Shown: one piece after another, positions 9,974 through 61,018 of the stretch
How positions within the stretch are numbered: position 1 is the first letter of the stretch
Layout of the letters: the number at the start of each line of letters is the position of its first letter
Virus record (IMG/VR): IMGVR_UViG_3300028966_000062
Origin: a virus
Length of the DNA: 64,000 nucleotides
Direction: 5' to 3' (one strand)
Notes under the pieces: model-generated
What the model was told of the DNA's origin: nothing
Databases searched by the model: none
Seen by the model: the letters and a program-made list of their open reading frames with translations, nothing else
Program-made: the position numbers and the translations under genes

Positions 9974-10182
9974 TTATGAATATCAACGAAATTCGTTACT
10001 TTGAACGTAAGATGACCGACAGTGCATTTGATGATGCTGTGAAGTACGATCCAGCGATTGCAGTTCGTGCAAAGCGAGCATGGGTTATAAAAATACAAGG
10101 GCTGATTTCGTTCCGGGAGTACATTTCTTGCTTGCAAGATATTACCGGCAACGCACGAATCTTTTGGAAGTATCAGTTTTAA
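9970..10182 (+). CDS. hypothetical protein (70 aa)
   Basis: SD GAGGAGAAATGATTATG. Confidence 0.4.
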   Translation: MIMNINEIRYFERKMTDSAFDDAVKYDPAIAVRAKRAWVIKIQGLISFREYISCLQDITGNARIFWKYQF

Positions 10183-10196
10183 GAGGAGGAAACAAA

Positions 10197-10457
10197 ATGT
10201 TTTTGCTTATCAATATTTATATTGCAAAAGGTGAGAATTCATTTCTCCCAGAAGTTGTTTATAAAAAGGGTTTTAATACGATTCTTGAGGCGGAAAATGA
10301 AATGAACAAACAAGTGGACGATATTCTTGTAAATCATTATTGTAAATATTATAAAGATGAAAACGGTGAACAGAATTTTAGTGTTTTGCGATTAAAAGGT
10401 GATATTCGTATTGATGCTTGTGACGTATACGACTGGTGGAAAATCGTAGAGATTTGA
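10197..10457 (+). CDS. hypothetical protein (86 aa)
   Basis: ATG 10197 after GAGGAGGAAAC; track ORF 10080 N-terminal extension likely spurious. Confidence 0.45.
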   Translation: MFLLINIYIAKGENSFLPEVVYKKGFNTILEAENEMNKQVDDILVNHYCKYYKDENGEQNFSVLRLKGDIRIDACDVYDWWKIVEI

Positions 10458-10486
10458 TAAAACAGTTCTTCTAAGGAGATAGTAAT

Positions 10487-10738
10487 ATGAATGAAAAGAG
10501 TTTTGAAATTGACACGCCTATTGGAAAACTGGTTGCTGAAGCTGGTGGAGATTATAAAGATTATCCAGGAATTTACATTTATCTTCAGAGGGAAGATGGC
10601 GTTCAAATTGATTTGTCTTGTACGGAAATTGATAAAGAAACTGGCGAAGGCAGAGTCTTTGTCTGGGAAAATACGTCTATAGATGAATACACCAAGATGA
10701 TGCGATGGACTAAAGAACAACTTATGATTAAAGAGTGA
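10487..10738 (+). CDS. hypothetical protein (83 aa)
   Basis: SD TAAGGAGATAG. Confidence 0.5.
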   Translation: MNEKSFEIDTPIGKLVAEAGGDYKDYPGIYIYLQREDGVQIDLSCTEIDKETGEGRVFVWENTSIDEYTKMMRWTKEQLMIKE

Positions 10739-10757
10739 GTGTAGGGAGTAAACAAAA

Positions 10758-12065
10758 ATGACTACTAATAATCCTATGACCGTAATAACCTCTAAGCCCT
10801 TTGGTGTACTGAATGTGGATGTGTACCAGAATGACAAGCATCAGTATTACATGACTCGTGAACAAATTGGTGCAGCGCTAGAGTACAATAATCCTAATAA
10901 GGCAATTCAAAACATCCATGTTAAGAATACGGATCGTCTTGACCCTCTTTCAACATTCCTCAAACTGAGGAAAGTTGAGGGCGGAATCACGAAGGAACGT
11001 GAATATATTGTTTACAGTTTGCGTGGTGTTATGGAAATCTGCCGTCTGTCACGTCAGCCGAAAGCAGATGCGTTCATGGATTTCTGCTGGGACATCATGG
11101 AATCCTTGATGCGTGGTGACACCGTTCTGGCTACGCCTCAGATGGATGCTGCACTGAGTAAGGAGTTCATTGATGTAAGACTTCACGCTCTGTTTGATAG
11201 CATGAAGAACCTTCAGAGTGAACTTGATTCCACTCGCAAGGAGCTCAGTGACCAAATTGAGGAAGCTCGTGCTACTAGCAACGAAGCACTGAATGTAATC
11301 AGCAGCGTGTCTCAGAGTGTCCATCAGATTAAGGATAAGCAGATGGATAATTCGATTCGTGCTAAGAGCTATACTCCTCGCAATGTGTTTCGGGATGAAA
11401 TGAGTGACTGGCGTAAAGATTTGTATAGCAAGATTGGTGTGATTGCAAATACTAAAGGTTACACAAATAAAGAAACGCTTCACAAGATCTATGAATATCT
11501 GAATCGTAATTATGGTTTTGTTTTGGAAGATGCTCGTGCAAAGTATATTAAGAGAACGAATCGTAGTGGAAAAATTTCAACAATCGACATTATCGAAGAG
11601 GATTCCACTTGGAAATCTATCATGGAGGCTGTTGTTGCAGATATGTACGTAGCATCTATCGAGCGTCTGCATCAGAATCAGAATGAACTTCGTCCGACTC
11701 CAAAGGCTGTCGAAGCAGTTTCTGAAACAAATATGAACGTTACTCCTGTGATTGATGTGGTAGCTAAAGAAGTCGTTAACAAAAAACTTAAGAACAAGAA
11801 ACAGAGTGAGACGGCGAAGATCCTTTTTCCAATCATGATGCCTCTGGCGGAAAAACTTGGTGACAAGCCACAATATAAGCACACTTACACTCTGATTTAT
11901 GAGCGTATTGGCTATAAGAAAATGAATAATTTGTTTGTGGCTTACGAAAAGGCACACGGTAAGGCACCGCATCCGAAGACTAAGGTGTTTATCGAAAATG
12001 AAAAGAATCTCGCGCTATTTAAGAAGACTGTGAAGCAGCTGATGAAAGGACAGGAGAATAAGTAA
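10758..12065 (+). CDS. Bro-N domain-like protein (antirepressor-like), 435 aa
   Basis: N-terminal ~120 aa pattern FGVLNVDV...REQIGAALEY...AI...YIVYSLRGVMEIC resembles Bro-N/KilA-N DNA-binding modules (inference from motif memory). Confidence 0.45.
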   Translation: MTTNNPMTVITSKPFGVLNVDVYQNDKHQYYMTREQIGAALEYNNPNKAIQNIHVKNTDRLDPLSTFLKLRKVEGGITKEREYIVYSLRGVMEICRLSRQPKADAFMDFCWDIMESLMRGDTVLATPQMDAALSKEFIDVRLHALFDSMKNLQSELDSTRKELSDQIEEARATSNEALNVISSVSQSVHQIKDKQMDNSIRAKSYTPRNVFRDEMSDWRKDLYSKIGVIANTKGYTNKETLHKIYEYLNRNYGFVLEDARAKYIKRTNRSGKISTIDIIEEDSTWKSIMEAVVADMYVASIERLHQNQNELRPTPKAVEAVSETNMNVTPVIDVVAKEVVNKKLKNKKQSETAKILFPIMMPLAEKLGDKPQYKHTYTLIYERIGYKKMNNLFVAYEKAHGKAPHPKTKVFIENEKNLALFKKTVKQLMKGQENK

Positions 12066-12689
12066 ATGTATGTAATCTCGAATGGTCATAACTATATTAT
12101 GAAACGGAAGGGAGGTCGAATCTGCGCCACCTGTGATATCAATCTGGCATTGCAGTTTAAATCAAAGGGGCTGGCAATCTGTGAAATCAATAAGCTTCCC
12201 GCTGGGTATAAGAACGGACGCTATGCACCAAAATCTATGGATGAAGCTACCATCGCAGGCAAGAGTCCGAATATAACGGCTCCGGCTGTAAAGCCAAATA
12301 CATACGCATTTCACATGGAAGATTCTGAATGGCTGATAGAGTTGAAGAAAAATCTTGAGGTCACAGACAAAACAATGACCAGCCTCGATGATTTATATGC
12401 CAAAGTCTACAGTGATTTAACTGCGGCTAGCGATGAGATTGCCGATATTGAACACGCAATTGAGTTCAAAACAGTGAATGCAGCGCAAGGTTATCAGCTT
12501 ATGGCGGAACTTAAAAGAGCTCGCCGGAAGCGCAGAGAAGCTAAGGATGCAAAGCTTCTGCTTGAGATTGTGATGGACCATCGAAATAATGATGATTGGG
12601 GCCATGGTCGGCTTGGGGCTGCTATTGAACAGCTTGACTCGCGTCAGTTTACTCCGAAGGTTCGTAACGATCTGTTTGAAAAGAATTGA
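12066..12689 (+). CDS. hypothetical protein (207 aa)
   Basis: ORF abutting upstream stop. Confidence 0.5.
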   Translation: MYVISNGHNYIMKRKGGRICATCDINLALQFKSKGLAICEINKLPAGYKNGRYAPKSMDEATIAGKSPNITAPAVKPNTYAFHMEDSEWLIELKKNLEVTDKTMTSLDDLYAKVYSDLTAASDEIADIEHAIEFKTVNAAQGYQLMAELKRARRKRREAKDAKLLLEIVMDHRNNDDWGHGRLGAAIEQLDSRQFTPKVRNDLFEKN

Positions 12690-12700
12690 GGTATATAAAA

Positions 12701-12838
12701 ATGACGATTCATATTTTACACGAATGTATCGACTCTAGCGATTTTTACGCAGAAGGTAATATTATTACCATTAACAAAGATAAAGAGAAGTTGTCTGAAA
12801 AGATGTTCTTGCTTTATAAGGACTGCCGGGATTCGTAA
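12701..12838 (+). CDS. small hypothetical protein (45 aa)
   Basis: ATG 12701; weak SD. Confidence 0.25.
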   Translation: MTIHILHECIDSSDFYAEGNIITINKDKEKLSEKMFLLYKDCRDS

Positions 12839-12958: not shown

Positions 12959-13183
12959 ATGATGGTATATGGAAACATAACGTGTAATCGCTGTGGCATT
13001 ACATGGTATGGTCCTAAATGTGGAAAGCTCTATTGTGATGAATGTCGTAAGATAATAAGAAATGAGGCATCCATTCGATGCAAGAATAAAAAGAAACATA
13101 AACCAACATTTGTTGAGATTGCAAGAATGGCAGATGCTAAAGGATTATCTTACGGTAAGTATTGCTTGAAGTATGGAATTTGA
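12959..13183 (+). CDS. zinc-ribbon protein (CxxC...CxxC)
   Basis: CNRCG...CGKLYCDEC motif. Confidence 0.45.
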   Translation: MMVYGNITCNRCGITWYGPKCGKLYCDECRKIIRNEASIRCKNKKKHKPTFVEIARMADAKGLSYGKYCLKYGI

Positions 13184-13193
13184 GGTGAATGTG

Positions 13194-14012
13194 ATGAGTG
13201 CAGTTGTTGAAAGAAAAGAAGAACAGATATCTAAATTGATTTATTTTAATCCGAAACCTTCTGTTCCGGCTAAAAAACGTGGTGTTACAAAAAGTAAGCA
13301 GAAGCGTAAGCGTAATATTTCTCCAATTAGAAGCTTGGATGATGTTCAAATGATTTCGGAATACTTCTGGGATAAAAAGCAATATCGCAATTGGTGTCTA
13401 TTTAACGTAGGTATCGCAACCGGGTTACGTGCTAGTGATTTACTCAAATTGAAAGTTTCCGATATGTCTTATTGCCTTTATAATGGAAAAATTGAAGTGG
13501 TTGAAGACGCTGGAGTGTGTATCGTTGAAGAAAAAACGTCCAAGTATCGAGAAATCATCCTTACTCCAGAAGCGAGGGATATTGTTGAAACATATATTAA
13601 GATTGCGAAACTTGGATATGACGATTGGATGTTTCCGTCTCGGCAGGGGAGCTGGAAAAAGTCGTTGAGGACAAATGGTGGAGATGGAAAAACTGGTATT
13701 CCTCATCTTGCAGAACCCAAAAAGGCCGGTGATCCTATTGATGTTGATTCTTTTGCTCGTATTCTTCGTAACGCTGGCAAAGATTTGGGTCTTAATTATA
13801 AGATTGCATCTCATTCTTGCCGTAAGACATTTGGTTATCGTGAGATGTGTCTTAATAAGGATGATAACCAGGCATTGTCTTGGATTCAGGGTCAGTTGAA
13901 TCATAGTAGTCAGGATATTACATTACGGTACGTTGGTTTTGATGAGGATAAGGCAAAAGAATATTATAAGAAGACTTTTTATGGTGTGAATACACACAGC
14001 TTGGAAGACTGA
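13194..14012 (+). CDS. tyrosine site-specific recombinase (phage integrase family)
   Basis: TGLRASDLL (box I Arg), HSCRKTFGY (HxxR), LNHSSQDITLRYV (His...Tyr) motifs; ATG 13194 after GAGGTG. Confidence 0.75.
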   Translation: MSAVVERKEEQISKLIYFNPKPSVPAKKRGVTKSKQKRKRNISPIRSLDDVQMISEYFWDKKQYRNWCLFNVGIATGLRASDLLKLKVSDMSYCLYNGKIEVVEDAGVCIVEEKTSKYREIILTPEARDIVETYIKIAKLGYDDWMFPSRQGSWKKSLRTNGGDGKTGIPHLAEPKKAGDPIDVDSFARILRNAGKDLGLNYKIASHSCRKTFGYREMCLNKDDNQALSWIQGQLNHSSQDITLRYVGFDEDKAKEYYKKTFYGVNTHSLED

Positions 14013-24076: not shown

Positions 24077-24161
24077 GCCAAGGTGCTGCAAATGGGAGAC
24101 AGGGCGAGCCCAAACCTCGCTGTGGAAACACATGCGGTTTCGAATACCGTCCTTGGCACCA
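24077..24161 (+). tRNA. tRNA-Leu (anticodon CAA), class II long variable arm
   Basis: acceptor GCCAAGG/CCTTGGC, anticodon arm GCGAG-CCCAAAC-CTCGC, variable hairpin TGTG-GAAA-CACA, T-arm GCGGT-TTCGAAT-ACCGT, discriminator A + CCA; position 33 is C (unusual). Confidence 0.55.
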
Positions 24162-24200
24162 GAGTCCGAATATTCATTTATTAGATGTTGGAGGCATTTT

Positions 24201-25097
24201 ATGAAAAAGATTGATAAACTTACAAAAGAAGAAATTGAGCAAGCTTTTGAGGAAAGCAAAAGTTAGGCTGCGGTTGCGGAGAAGCTTGGATATTCAAAAA
24301 ATGGTGGAAGTACGAATCACGTACTTCAAGATTGTGCAAAAGCGCACAATATAAATACTTCTCATTTCACTGGGCAGGGCTAGAATAAAGGGAACGTGGA
24401 TTTGTCTCGTTTTAAAAATGGAAGACGAATAAAGGATTTAAAATCCGCACTTCTTTCTATCAAACCATATAAGTGTGAATGTTGTGGAAACTCTGAATAG
24501 ATGGGCAAACAGATTCCATTGCAAGTACATCATATTGACGGAAACCACATAAATAATGAGTTAGACAATCTTCAGTTGCTTTGCCCGAATTGTCATGCAC
24601 AAACTGATAATTGGTGCAAAAATAATATCGGGAAATACAAGACTGTGAGCGATAAAGATTTTCTTGATGCGTTAAAAACAACATCAACTATAAATGCCGC
24701 TCTTGAAAAAGTTGGAATTTATTATTCTGCGAGAGTGTGGTATGACAAAGCAAGGCAACTAATGATTGAAAACAACGTAACTCAAATTCCACGTGAAAAG
24801 GTTATCCGTGAGAAAAAAGAAAGAAAAAGAAGAAAAATCAAATATTGTTCAATATGCGGAAAAGAAATGAGTCCGCGTGCAAAAGGATGTCTCTGTAAAA
24901 ATTGTTTAAAAGGAAATCCTTACAGTAAACGCATTGATTTTCCTGATAAAGAACAATTGATGGTAGACACAGCTTCAATGTCCTTTCAAGATGTTGGAAG
25001 AAAATATGGAGTATCAGGAAATGCCATACGTAAATGGTGCAAGTATTATGATTTACCATACAGAAAATTAGATATGAACAGTAAAGAGGAAAATTAA
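24201..25097 (+). CDS. HNH homing endonuclease with N- and C-terminal HTH-like regions; single reading frame containing three in-frame TAG codons (24264, 24381, 24498)
   Basis: KCECCGNSE-TAG-MGKQIPLQVHHIDGNHINNELDNLQLLCPNCHAQT HNH signature; no frameshift between segments; TAGs sit where conserved Trp is expected. Confidence 0.7.
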
Positions 25098-25141: not shown

Positions 25142-25229
25142 GCCGCAGTGATGGAGTGACATACATTTCCCGCTTAAACCGGGACGCCTGAAATATGGAT
25201 CGTGGGTTTGAATCCCACCTTCGGCACCA
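25142..25229 (+). tRNA. tRNA-Leu (anticodon TAA)
   Basis: acceptor GCCGCAG/CTTCGGC, anticodon arm TCCCG-CTTAAAC-CGGGA, long variable arm, T-arm GTGGG-TTTGAAT-CCCAC, ACCA end. Confidence 0.6.
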
Positions 25230-25232
25230 TAT

Positions 25233-25306
25233 CGAGAACGTGGTGTAATGGTAACACGCCTGCTTTGGGAGCAGGAGTTGCAGTTCAAATCTGACGTTTT
25301 CGACCA
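25233..25306 (+). tRNA. probable tRNA-Pro (anticodon TGG), noncanonical T-stem
   Basis: acceptor CGAGAAC/GTTTTCG + A + CCA; anticodon arm CCTGC-TTTGGGA-GCAGG; T-loop TTCAAAT but only 3 bp T-stem. Confidence 0.35.
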
Positions 25307-25411
25307 GTTGGTTTCCCAACATGCTTTTCATAAAATACCTTTCCTATTATTCTTGGCTCTCCAAAAATGGAGCAATAGGACACAGCAAGCCAAGTATATA
25401 ATGCGTCGTAG

Positions 25412-25485
25412 CCAAGCGGTTAAGGCAGGGTCCTTTGAAGTCCCGATTGCGAAAGTTCGATTCTTTCCGGCGCAATTTATATGCC
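25412..25485 (+). tRNA. tRNA-Gln (anticodon TTG)
   Basis: acceptor TGCGTCG/CGGCGCA, D-arm GCC-AAGCGGTTAA-GGC, anticodon loop CTTTGAA, T-arm GAAAG-TTCGATT-CTTTC. Confidence 0.55.
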
Positions 25486-25492
25486 ACAGTGG

Positions 25493-25567
25493 TGGAATTG
25501 ACCTACACATCTATTTTAGGGGTAGACGCCGAAAGGCTTGCGAGTTTGAGTCTCGCCTGTGGCACCA
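25493..25567 (+). tRNA. tRNA-Leu (anticodon TAG)
   Basis: acceptor GCCACAG/CTGTGGC + A + CCA; anticodon arm TCTAT-TTTAGGG-GTAGA; long variable arm; T-arm GCGAG-TTTGAGT-CTCGC. Confidence 0.6.
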
Positions 25568-25666
25568 CGGTCATAGAATGGTTGCGTACCGTTTGTTGAT
25601 CTCCTTTACTATTATTCCCAGCTCGCCAGTGATGGTGCAGTAGTGTTTTGTAAGCTGGGTTTTCAT

Positions 25667-25741
25667 GCGGCGGTCGTACAACGGCTAGTACATCAGCCTT
25701 CCAAGCTGAGGATGAGGTTTCGACTACCTTTCGCTGCTCCA
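25667..25741 (+). tRNA. tRNA-Gly (anticodon TCC)
   Basis: acceptor GCGGCGG/TCGCTGC, D-arm GTAC-AACGGCTA-GTAC, anticodon arm TCAGC-CTTCCAA-GCTGA, T-arm GAGGT-TTCGACT-ACCTT, T + CCA. Confidence 0.6.
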
Positions 25742-25930
25742 ATCTCGTATGGGTAGGATCTTTGGCGGTCAGATCTGGCCGCGCCTGTGCGAGATACCAC
25801 CCCGAAAGGGGCGAGATATAGGAAATGTGCATCGCTGTTATTCCTTCCTCGTCTATATGATATAGATGCAATAGTGTTTTATAAGGAAGGTGCCCAGTTG
25901 AATAGTTGCAGCTATTTAACTGGTTTTTAT

Positions 25931-26011
25931 GGGACATTATCTCAATTGGTTAGAGAACTCAGCTCATAACTGAGCATATGTATCACGGTTCAAGTCCGAC
26001 ATGTCCCACCA
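25931..26011 (+). tRNA. tRNA-Met (anticodon CAT; initiator/elongator/Ile2 not resolved)
   Basis: acceptor GGGACAT/ATGTCCC + A + CCA; D-arm TCTC-AATTGGTTA-GAGA; anticodon arm CTCAG-CTCATAA-CTGAG; T-loop TTCAAGT with weak T-stem. Confidence 0.55.
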
Positions 26012-58594: not shown

Positions 58595-59608
58595 TTGAAA
58601 GGATGTGATTTTATAGACTCAAAAGATGTGTTAAAAACCGAATCTGAGCCAGTAGGTTATATTTATATTACAGAAAATTTAGTTGATGGAAGAAAATACA
58701 TAGGCCAACATCATTCAAAAGAATTCGATCCATATTATAAAGGATCTGGAAAAATATTAAAACAGGCATTTGATAAATATGGATTTAGTAACTTTAAAAC
58801 GACGATTTTGGAATGGTGCTACTCGGATGAGGAACTAAACGAAAAAGAACGTTATTGGATAAAAGAAAACAATGCAGTAGAAGATAGATTATTTTACAAT
58901 ATTTTGCCGGGTGGTCTTGGTGTTCAGATGTTTGGGCCAGACAATCATATGTATGGAAAGCACCATACAGAAGAAGCAAAAGAAAAAATGTCAGATGCTT
59001 TGAAGGGGAAAATGGCAGGAGAGAATAATCCAATGTATGGAGTCCATCTTACATACACTCAAGAACAAAAAGATAAAATGAGCGAACGAAACAAACGAAT
59101 GGGGAGATGGGTAGGAGAAGATAATCCTTGGTATGGAAAACCATCACCATTTAAAGGGAAAAAACGTAGTGAAGAGTGGTGTAAGAAATCTTCTGAAGCT
59201 CACAAAGGAATTCACCCTAATATTTCAGAAGAAACAAGAGCTCGTTTAAGTAAAATGCGAAGCGAATGGATGTCTGGAGAGAAAAACCATTGGTATGGGA
59301 AAAGAGGGGCAGAACTTCCATGGTATGGGAGAAAAAAGACACCGGAAGAGATAGAAAAGCTAAGACAAGCAAGTTTAGGAAAGAGAAAAGGAAAAGATAA
59401 CCCCGCATCTAAGCCTATCTATTCAATGGACGGAAGGTATTTGTTTTGGACAATACAAGAGGTGGCTGACTTTTTAGGAAAGACATACGGGCAAGCAAGA
59501 CATGCAATCGACCATGAAAAACAAGTTGACTGTAACGGAGAACAAATAATTTTCACAAGAGACAAATCTAAAGTAAAGGAGAAGAATTTTCAGGATGAAC
59601 TACGCTAA
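58595..59608 (+). CDS. GIY-YIG homing endonuclease with four NUMOD3-like repeats
   Basis: GYIYITENLVDGRKYIGQH (GIY...YIG); repeated N(H/N)xYGK...KxKMS modules; start codon uncertain. Confidence 0.8.
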   Translation: MKGCDFIDSKDVLKTESEPVGYIYITENLVDGRKYIGQHHSKEFDPYYKGSGKILKQAFDKYGFSNFKTTILEWCYSDEELNEKERYWIKENNAVEDRLFYNILPGGLGVQMFGPDNHMYGKHHTEEAKEKMSDALKGKMAGENNPMYGVHLTYTQEQKDKMSERNKRMGRWVGEDNPWYGKPSPFKGKKRSEEWCKKSSEAHKGIHPNISEETRARLSKMRSEWMSGEKNHWYGKRGAELPWYGRKKTPEEIEKLRQASLGKRKGKDNPASKPIYSMDGRYLFWTIQEVADFLGKTYGQARHAIDHEKQVDCNGEQIIFTRDKSKVKEKNFQDELR

Positions 59609-60657: not shown

Positions 60658-60669
60658 TGGAGAGTGTAT

Positions 60670-60894
60670 ATGAAATATTACATTATTGAAACTCATTACG
60701 AGAAAGAAGCTCCATTTGGAATTGCATGGCAAGTAAAGCTGTTTGACAAGCACACGCTTCTGGAAGAGTACGACCACATCTTCTATAACGAGATTGCTGG
60801 CTACTGCAAGTGTCTTGAGGATATGGGGTTTGTTGAAAATGTTGAAGTGAAAGTTGATATTAAAAGCGAATTGAAGAAATTGCAGGAGTTCTAG
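60670..60894 (+). CDS. hypothetical protein; only gene in window ending at TAG, with 33-codon open in-frame extension to TAA at 60991
   Basis: ATG 60670 after GGAGAG; stop TAG 60892-94. Confidence 0.45.
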   Translation: MKYYIIETHYEKEAPFGIAWQVKLFDKHTLLEEYDHIFYNEIAGYCKCLEDMGFVENVEVKVDIKSELKKLQEF

Positions 60895-61018
60895 AAGAGT
60901 ATCGGTGAAATTATCGCATCGGCTGCAACGCTGGAGAATCCTGCAAAAAGTGTAGAAACACCTTCGATTAGAACAAAATATTCATTCTGGTAAAAGGTAA
61001 ATTTTTTAGGAGAATTCG

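Follow-up and report, generated by a model that had tools for sequence, protein, structure and literature searches.

Is an HNH endonuclease gene still intact when its reading frame is crossed by three TAG codons, and if it is, what would read those codons? The question is raised by positions 24,201 to 25,097 of a 64,000-nucleotide stretch of viral DNA (IMG/VR record IMGVR_UViG_3300028966_000062), which is called the window throughout. Our comparative analysis makes it likely that the locus holds an intact mobile HNH gene, and that its TAG codons would be read as tryptophan by a phage-encoded CUA tRNA derived from tRNA-Trp(CCA).

Translation of the whole frame gave exactly three internal stops, all of them TAG, with zero TAA or TGA codons and zero frameshifts or indels, as had been described in an earlier reading made from the window alone, here called the sequence-only reading (Table 1). 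That reading had also recognized helix-turn-helix (HTH) modules and a CxxC...HH...N...CxxCH core, and a Pfam match and an alignment of 29 homologs bore out the HNH assignment. The predicted protein comprises an N-terminal HTH-like region, the core, a C-terminal Zn-ribbon and an HTH; it matches the Pfam HNH family (PF01844) with 22.6 bits against a cut-off of 21.4, and C92, C95, H110, H111, N123, C128, C131 and H132 all lie in columns that are at least 90% conserved in the alignment. The product is accordingly classed here as a putative HNH protein with the beta-beta-alpha metal motif that defines PF01844. Restart of translation at an ATG past the third TAG was considered and rejected, as the product would be without the first CxxC of the zinc site.

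Table 1. Coordinates of the features discussed. Positions are those of the window, except in the last three rows, which refer to related IMG/VR contigs.
Feature	Position	Strand	Remarks
HNH homing-endonuclease gene	24201..25097	+	298 codons, single frame, intact if TAG is read as Trp
GGAGG, Shine-Dalgarno-like	24190..24194	+	6 nt 5' of the ATG at 24201; read from the sequence
In-frame TAG, codon 22	24264..24266	+	Trp column; TGG in L001 (contig with 97% DNA identity)
In-frame TAG, codon 61	24381..24383	+	Conserved Trp of the GQGW motif
In-frame TAG, codon 100	24498..24500	+	Conserved Trp right after the first CxxC, before the HH of the HNH core
tRNA-Leu(CAA)	24077..24161	+	tRNA cluster 1; upstream neighbour of the HNH insertion; ARAGORN
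Six more tRNAs: Leu-UAA, Pro-UGG, Gln-UUG, Leu-UAG, Gly-UCC, Met-CAU	25142..26011	+	tRNA cluster 1; ARAGORN
Small ORF	60664..60993	+	109 codons, in-frame TAG at 60892-60894; orthologs have CAG (Gln), then the same TAA
CUA tRNA of the genome with HNH locus L092	18716-18790		Contig _112321; tRNA locus L242
CUA tRNA of the genome with HNH locus L094	18087-18161		Contig _127311; tRNA locus L217
CUA tRNA of the genome with HNH locus L093	8226-8302		Contig _086263; tRNA locus L382

A protein search returned 1,440 homologs of the HNH protein, and the full-length relatives align with it end to end. The sequence-only reading had placed the TAGs at Trp positions, and the alignment of the 29 homologs agrees, since Trp occupies each of the three columns in the wider family. 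In the database proteins closest to the window's, Gln is scattered across Trp columns, and the DNA behind those Gln residues consists of TAG codons that the gene caller had rendered with table 15. At the DNA level, the copy in L001 (97% identity to the window gene) shares the TAGs of codons 61 and 100 but reads TGG at codon 22, and the copy in L094, with 50% amino acid identity, still has TAG in the same three columns. Two further HNH genes, P0009 and P0012, contain five TAGs each, nine of the ten lying on W or W/Y columns, while the genes beside them use ordinary TGG and have no in-frame TAG. Over the four TAG-bearing lineages read as DNA (window type, L094, P0009 and P0012), TAG accounts for 16 of 16 interruptions, 15 of which fall on Trp or Trp/Tyr columns, and the relatives' HNH genes that were examined contained no TAA, TGA or frameshift. 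Within the HNH clade, a TAG on a W column was never found as CAG or CAA, and alternation between TGG and TAG was found at 97% DNA identity.

These patterns bear on an alternative that the sequence-only reading had offered, namely that three independent TGG-to-TAG changes hit a selfish gene that was no longer needed. It is well established that homing-endonuclease genes, once fixed, degenerate, and copies of the present gene do decay, since L002 retains a truncated remnant made up of only the C-terminal 140 HNH residues, fused to another ORF. Against this explanation, TGG>TAG makes up 3.7-10% of the single-step nonsense paths in the HNH gene when its Trp codons are restored, and the probability that three of three nonsense hits would be of this type is therefore 5e-5 to 1e-3. 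The uniform choice of TAG on Trp or Trp/Tyr columns, the lack of indels and the conservation of the TAG columns at 50% identity in L094 also oppose decay, as does the comparison of the window with L001, which shows 12 synonymous and 9 non-synonymous codon differences (dN/dS roughly 0.25, an estimate from counts). Pseudogene decay is thus very unlikely.

The same protein family supplies an internal control for the identity of the amino acid. HNH homologs of other phages (L104, L015 and L101) have TAG on conserved Gln columns, in the motifs G(TAG)GW, NL(TAG)LLCPNCH, IPL(TAG)VHH and SIR(TAG)AL, and L101 encodes its own CUA tRNA. As TAG lies on Gln columns in these phages and on Trp columns in the clade of the window, one protein family shows both usages.

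The window as a whole was then considered with regard to TAG as a terminator. Stop usage was determined in 119 ORFs, selected greedily with a minimum length of 50 aa and lying without exception on the + strand; a plain count of in-frame TAG in ORFs delimited by TAA or TGA was uninformative, most matches being extensions upstream of the true start. Three ORFs of the set ended in TAG, namely the first HNH fragment, an artefact frame over tRNA genes, and the frame 60664-60894. The sequence-only reading had regarded the last of these as the one gene that ends in TAG (60892-60894); the TAG is present, but it is an in-frame codon and no terminator, as the ORF continues past it for 33 codons to a TAA at 60991-60993 and the position is CAG in four orthologous loci. 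As a counterpoint to the HNH gene, this fourth in-frame TAG of the window aligns to Gln and not to Trp. Genuine TAG terminators number zero among about 117 genes. Inside the window genes, off-frame TAG and TAA occur in a ratio of 364:1031, so that roughly 20 genes would be expected to end in TAG from composition alone. The earlier statement that TAG ends fall far below expectation therefore stands; the GC content given with it, about 38 percent, is to be corrected to 41%.

A tRNA that could read TAG was sought in the window. ARAGORN found no suppressor tRNA among the seven tRNAs of the 64-kb window, all of which flank the HNH gene, and thereby agreed with the earlier report that no CUA anticodon is present among them. 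BLAST of the window with four of the CUA tRNA types described below (A-D) and with tRNA-Trp(CCA) gave no match.

The window is a block of replication and nucleotide-metabolism genes, encoding a DnaE-type polymerase, helicases, primase, ligase, RecJ, NrdD, ThyX and FolD, and it contains no structural genes. Look-ups with the proteins at the ends of the window led past its 3' end to Xis and an integrase and then to the host genes carboxyltransferase/oadA, yicC, remA, gmk and priA, an arrangement that shows an integrated prophage. Upstream of the window, on the opposite strand, lies a gene for a YonO-like 'RdRP' RNA polymerase (PF05183), as in SPbeta. The source is an SPbeta-like prophage of ~130 kb, temperate and common in human-gut metagenomes. 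IMG/VR contains at least 160-230 contigs related to it, which are 110-141 kb long and come nearly all from human-gut data sets. GenBank phages included no close complete relative, the best matches being a 35-kb fragment (85% identity) and the DnaE of Clostridium phage Amboise (47%).

Loci centred on the YonO-like gene (n = 80) exposed a second tRNA cluster in the relatives, situated ~1 kb upstream of the terminase genes and downstream of the gene for the YonO-like RNA polymerase. This cluster contains a tRNA with a CUA anticodon, at a location corresponding to about 27 kb beyond the 5' end of the window, which is the reason why it could not be seen in the sequence-only reading. ARAGORN detected the CUA tRNA in 27 of the 80 loci and tRNA-Trp(CCA) in 10. 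The program misses a 75-nt CUA type with an atypical T-loop, and genomes bearing the HNH gene were hence scored as CUA-negative; Rfam recognizes this type as a tRNA with 40 bits, the gathering score being 29. The CUA tRNA is described by the pattern GCGCCYRT N(20-27) CTCTAAA N(24-32) GGGCGTGCCA. A search with a degenerate pattern, which exposed the 75-nt type, gave matches in 109 IMG/VR contigs. Counted by a regex, the first 80 loci comprised 46 with CUA, 10 with CCA and 24 with neither, and a second set of 80 loci comprised 51, 8 and 21, respectively. About 60% of the relatives thus have the suppressor, and about 35-40% are without a detectable CUA tRNA.

The CUA tRNAs fall into at least six sequence types (A-F), and in their RNAalifold cloverleaf 13 of 21 pairs keep pairing with changes on both sides. 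An alignment showed that all types have in common with the tRNA-Trp(CCA) of the family the acceptor stem, the G73 discriminator and a CUC[U/C]AAA anticodon loop, and that they differ from the phage tRNA-Gln. The 5' acceptor sequence GCGCC is present in 148 of 148 CUA tRNAs and in 18 of 19 Trp-CCA tRNAs, and all other isotype classes of the family lack it. One CUA type fills the exact slot of tRNA-Trp(CCA), in the order Ser-UGA > X > Met-CAU. When whole sequences are compared, tRNA-Trp is the nearest relative of types A, E and F, and types B, C and D are ambiguous. By its G73, Trp-type acceptor stem and anticodon loop, the CUA tRNA is a putative member of the tRNA-Trp lineage, and most likely it descends from the phage's own tRNA-Trp(CCA). 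Pyrrolysine decoding, suggested by the 'tRNA-Pyl' label that ARAGORN assigns, was rejected, because the label follows from the anticodon only and the molecule folds as a normal cloverleaf, in which the acceptor stem is of the Trp type and the anticodon stem has 5 bp, in contrast to the elongated anticodon stem and very short variable loop of a tRNA-Pyl.

The presence of this tRNA coincides with in-frame TAG in other genes of the relatives. TerL (Terminase_6N) has two Trp codons, in the segment LEQS[W]NASHVL[W]ACSR, at either of which TAG may stand; 18 loci have TAG at one of them, and every one of the 18 has the CUA tRNA (18 of 46 CUA-positive loci versus 0 of 34 others, p = 1.5e-5). A wider tally was restricted to long late genes on the + strand of 80 TerL-centred loci and to sites with at least eight supporting ortholog queries; Codetta-style tallies on all ORFs, or on a greedy two-strand set with a minimum of 120 aa, were dominated by spurious frames on the antisense strand, which produced many TAA and TGA 'sites'. 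The restricted tally gave 87 in-frame TAG sites, at which the orthologs have W in 84 cases, Q in two and Y in one, and, as controls, six in-frame TAA and four in-frame TGA sites. The sites align to W even though in-frame CAG is 2.6 times as frequent as TGG. CUA-positive loci hold 82 of the 87 sites, and at least one late-gene TAG site occurs in 46 of 51 CUA-positive loci compared with 3 of 29 others (Fisher p = 6e-13). As the 84 sites aligned to W represent only 15 different sequence contexts, the number of independent events is far below that of the sites. The base 3' of the recoded TAGs in these 15 contexts is G in nine, C in four, A in two and T in none, a marginal bias (p = 0.016).

Recoding in the family is sparse, with about 1-5 TAGs per genome, and late genes are not its sole site. 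One option of the sequence-only reading had replication genes kept free of TAG; an early gene of L007 and L008 is also recoded, reading NQY(TAG)FAETRWC where the window has DKYWFAETRWC. The HNH gene is by far the most TAG-rich. TAG stands at three of six HNH Trp codons in the window and at up to five of six in relatives (50-83%), whereas TAG makes up about 2.5% of Trp codons in the late genes of CUA-positive genomes; against this background, the enrichment has P = 3e-4 for three of six and 6e-8 for five of six. As terminators, TAGs were found in 4 of 1,324 long late ORFs of the relatives, and their frequency is near zero in every tRNA class. Because TAG ends are equally rare in genomes without the CUA tRNA, the depletion is a family trait and no proof of suppression in a single genome. 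Noisier ORF sets showed little difference in stop usage between tRNA classes (6.8% versus 9.1% TAG).

The tally also speaks to ordinary table-15 recoding, according to which TAG would encode Gln and proteins would tolerate this residue in place of Trp. The phage surveys searched report no amber reassignment other than TAG-to-Gln, the public database has translated the HNH relatives with Gln, and the TAG at 60892 aligns to CAG. Nevertheless, late-gene TAGs align to W 84 times and to Q twice in spite of the excess of CAG over TGG; TAGs on W columns of the HNH clade alternate with TGG at 97% DNA identity and never with CAG or CAA; true table-15 relatives in the same HNH family have their TAGs on Gln columns; and the body of the CUA tRNA is Trp-like and unlike the phage tRNA-Gln. 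We therefore regard this explanation as highly improbable.

Decoding might instead be a property of the host, by a host suppressor tRNA, a host-wide change of code, or A-to-I editing of UAG to UIG. The edited codon UIG would encode Trp, A-to-I editing is known from the amber/W site of hepatitis delta virus, and an unusual host would be compatible with the short stretch of flanking host sequence. However, the host genes adjoining the prophage include TAG-terminated ORFs and are without internal stops, a point on which the sequence-only reading had advised a check, and across genomes in-frame TAG follows the tRNA genotype of the phage. As for editing, bacterial TadA edits a UACG loop motif, and the TAG contexts are without that motif. 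Decoding by the host is accordingly an extremely unlikely account. The sequence-only reading had left open whether amber is suppressed or reassigned by the phage or by its host; suppression is supported, and the CUA tRNA of the relatives points to a phage-encoded agent rather than a host-encoded one.

The link between these relatives and the window is provided by the genomes that carry the HNH gene. Among the IMG/VR contigs of the phage family, the search for close HNH copies kept only L092, L093 and L094, and all three of these genomes with a TAG-interrupted HNH gene have a CUA tRNA (Table 1). L092 is 96.3% identical to the window across 18.7 kb. An exact 40-mer search for the window's own contig gave no match in the IMG/VR set searched; from these relatives, we infer that its genome has a CUA tRNA as well. 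The small number of copies among the at least 160-230 contigs compared shows the HNH gene to be sporadic among close relatives, and the insertion gap varies, lying between tRNA-Leu(CAA) and tRNA-Leu(UAA) in the window and between tRNA-Leu(UAG) and tRNA-Gly in L094. On these grounds the gene is predicted to be mobile, as expected for the homing type. When the HNH alignment was used to scan the species genomes of GTDB, no close relative was found.

A mobile gene could also be a silent passenger that homed in from a suppressor-bearing relative and is translated only when a co-infecting or co-resident phage carries the suppressor. No CUA tRNA is visible in the window, a considerable share of the relatives (about 35-40%) has none that can be detected, and the truncated fusion in L002 shows that HNH copies decay, all of which would fit. 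The CUA tRNA in three of three HNH-bearing IMG/VR genomes, including L092 with its 96% identity to the window, and the retention of the same three TAG columns across 50% protein divergence argue in the other direction, and we consider a silent passenger improbable.

The reading that we prefer is thus that of a gene decoded within its own phage. An intact HNH homing-endonuclease gene has been inserted among the tRNA genes of a temperate SPbeta-like phage of ~130 kb, and its three TAG codons are most likely translated as tryptophan by a CUA tRNA encoded by the phage, in the second cluster near the terminase genes, which would be charged with Trp by the host TrpRS. As a counterpoint, a tRNA-Trp of E. 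coli with a CUA anticodon is known to be mischarged with Gln. TAG suppressors have also been described as glutaminylated (Borges et al.). A host that lacks GlnRS would explain an absence of such mischarging. For the present family, we infer from the comparative data that Trp is the residue inserted at TAG.

Because the CUA tRNA lies with the late genes, the TAGs would keep the endonuclease untranslated in the lysogen and during early infection. The position of the tRNA and the TAG enrichment of the HNH gene make it quite possible, though we would not call it probable, that TAG-bearing genes are translated only after late transcription has started. The enrichment itself points to either selection for tight translational restraint of a nuclease located within a tRNA cluster or weak selection for its efficient translation. 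More speculative is the idea that the amber-to-Trp code acts as a trans-acting switch: since one recombining population is polymorphic for CUA, CCA or no tRNA in the same slot, genes with TAG may need a suppressor that is expressed by the genome itself or supplied by a co-infecting phage. If such a switch exists, a selfish nuclease would be gated by it, and a TAG-bearing TerL would be non-functional once recombined into a genome without the suppressor.

Stop-codon recoding by phage suppressor tRNAs is known, with TAG read as Gln (table 15) and TGA as Trp (table 4) (Ivanova 2014; Yutin 2021; Borges et al. 2021/22; Peters 2022), and the phage surveys searched report only TAG-to-Gln and TGA-to-Trp/Gly. 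The present family resembles these systems in having in-frame stops in conserved genes, including TerL, a phage tRNA with the matching anticodon (here in relatives), loss of the recoded codon as a terminator, and a host apparently on the standard code. The suppressor also adjoins late genes in both, and temporal control is therefore possible. The family differs in that amber is assigned to Trp, in that recoding is sparse, affecting about 1-5 codons in a genome where the known systems recode dozens of genes, in that the phage is temperate and integrated, and in that the tRNA is polymorphic (CUA, CCA or absent in the same slot) within one recombining family. Moreover, the most recoded gene is a homing endonuclease and not a lysis or structural gene.

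Another close group is phAss-1/'Phassvirus', ~136-kb Clostridia-associated phages of the human gut in which 41 ORFs contain TAG and three genes encode tRNA-Sup(CUA) (PMC10607447). By description, the two are similar in genome size and live in the same habitat, probably in Bacillota hosts, and both have amber suppressor tRNAs and a TerL with TAG. They are set apart by the TAG of phAss-1, which is described as aligning to conserved Gln, by its tRNA, which tRNAscan-SE types as Gln, and by the number of recoded ORFs, 41 there and a handful in the family of the window.

In its make-up, a tRNA-Trp body with CCA changed to CUA and G73 retained, the CUA tRNA is like the laboratory suppressor tRNA-Trp(CUA), for example E. 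coli su+7. In E. coli, su+7 is largely charged with Gln. Laboratory suppressors are mutant or engineered, whereas the tRNA of this family is natural, occurs in at least six types, is structurally constrained and has comparative evidence for Trp. Engineered tryptophanyl amber suppressors, tRNA-Trp(CUA), have been reported (PMC2965240). Our literature search found no natural amber-to-Trp decoding; besides phage recoding, it returned only UAG-to-Pyl in archaea and the engineered tryptophanyl suppressors.

As a free-standing HNH gene among tRNA genes, sporadic and with differing insertion gaps (L094 versus the window), the present gene is similar to T4 SegB and the T5 HNH genes. A homing endonuclease that needs amber suppression for its reading frame is not known to us, and the literature search likewise found none. 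If the proposed decoding is correct, a suppressor-dependent homing endonuclease would represent a new way to restrain a selfish nuclease in the lysogen.

Natural stop reassignments are few, and the TAG cases in the literature searched are Gln in phages, Pyl in archaea, and others in eukaryotes and organelles. Amber-to-Trp in a common human-gut prophage family would, if true, be a new entry among them, and it would imply that bacterial TrpRS can be recruited for UAG as well as for UGA. There is also a practical consequence, as gene callers that use table 15 put Gln for Trp in the genes of this phage family, an error already present in public protein databases. The family looks like an early stage of code change, since TAG has already disappeared as a terminator, about 60% of genomes have the suppressor, recoding extends to only a handful of codons, and TGG and TAG alternate between near-identical genomes; models for the onset of codon reassignment thereby become directly testable. 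In comparison with the known systems, the class of mechanism, a phage suppressor tRNA together with a codon lost as a terminator, is already established, and the features that appear to be new are the assignment to Trp, the temperate phage, the sparse and polymorphic recoding, and its concentration in a homing endonuclease.

The proteins of the HNH endonuclease clade carry Gln at the Trp columns in the public database (P0001, P0004, P0005, P0007-P0009, P0012 and P0013), and this is a systematic annotation error for the SPbeta-like phage family. For P0001, P0009 and P0012, the underlying DNA demonstrates that the deposited Gln is a TAG codon translated with table 15 by the gene caller; for P0004, P0005, P0007, P0008 and P0013, the alignment suggests that the Gln residues have this same source. 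On the + strand of the window, the TAG trinucleotide is scarce in every frame (438 occurrences, versus 1,214 for TAA and 1,928 for TGA), and a strong positive GC skew runs along the whole of this strand.

One type of the putative amber-suppressor tRNA with a CUA anticodon, 75 nt long, was not called by ARAGORN in the tRNA-cluster loci L242 and L217 and in about 25 further loci. It scores 40 bits with Rfam, and its T-loop reads CCCAAAA or CTCGAAA, versus TTCRANY. In surveys that rely on tRNA finders, counts of these suppressors would come out too low. tRNA cluster 2, in which these genes lie, differs widely in gene content among genomes that are alike elsewhere, and in L256-L335 and L176-L255 ARAGORN assigned it the unusual anticodons Ser-ACT, Tyr-ATA and His-ATG and one undetermined anticodon, '???-at'.

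Copies of the HNH gene do decay, since the called ORF P0010 in L002, in which an unrelated N-terminal part is joined to the final ~140 HNH residues, is a remnant of deletion or recombination. The window also encodes a second, free-standing endonuclease of the homing type, SegE-like with GIY-YIG and NUMOD3 domains, whose gene contains no in-frame TAG; among relatives this locus differs, encoding 252 aa in L003 and being missing in L004. TerL spans ~2,237 nt, versus 1,842 nt, in six relatives, and this insertion of ~395 bp may be an intron, an intein or a mobile element of some other kind. Within the early region lies a protein with a tyrosine-recombinase domain; this is separate from the Xis and integrase found together at the end of the prophage in L003-L006.

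Coordinates of features in the window and in loci from related genomes
Feature	Locus	Position	Strand
Protein with tyrosine-recombinase (Phage_integrase) domain	window	13173-14012	+
GIY-YIG/NUMOD3 endonuclease	window	58595-59608	+
P0010 fusion ORF	L002	10001-11068	
CUA tRNA	L242	18716-18790	
CUA tRNA	L217	18087-18161	
TerL (match)	L437-L441, L444	10001-12237	
YonO-like RNA polymerase (Pfam RdRP PF05183)	L007	1-1815	-
YonO-like RNA polymerase (PF05183)	L176-L255	~10001-12784	
ToxN-family toxin (PF13958)	L008	7318-7800	-
ToxN-family toxin (PF13958)	L009	6775-7257	-
ToxN-family toxin (PF13958)	L010	7504-7986	-

Directly upstream of the part matching the window start, L008-L010 carry a ToxN-family gene, absent from L007 at that position, which looks like variable defence or abortive-infection cargo. 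The late-strand operon of the relatives starts with a gene for a YonO-like single-subunit RNA polymerase of ~930-990 aa, and in Bacillus phage SPbeta a YonO-like polymerase likewise stands at the head of the late-strand operon.
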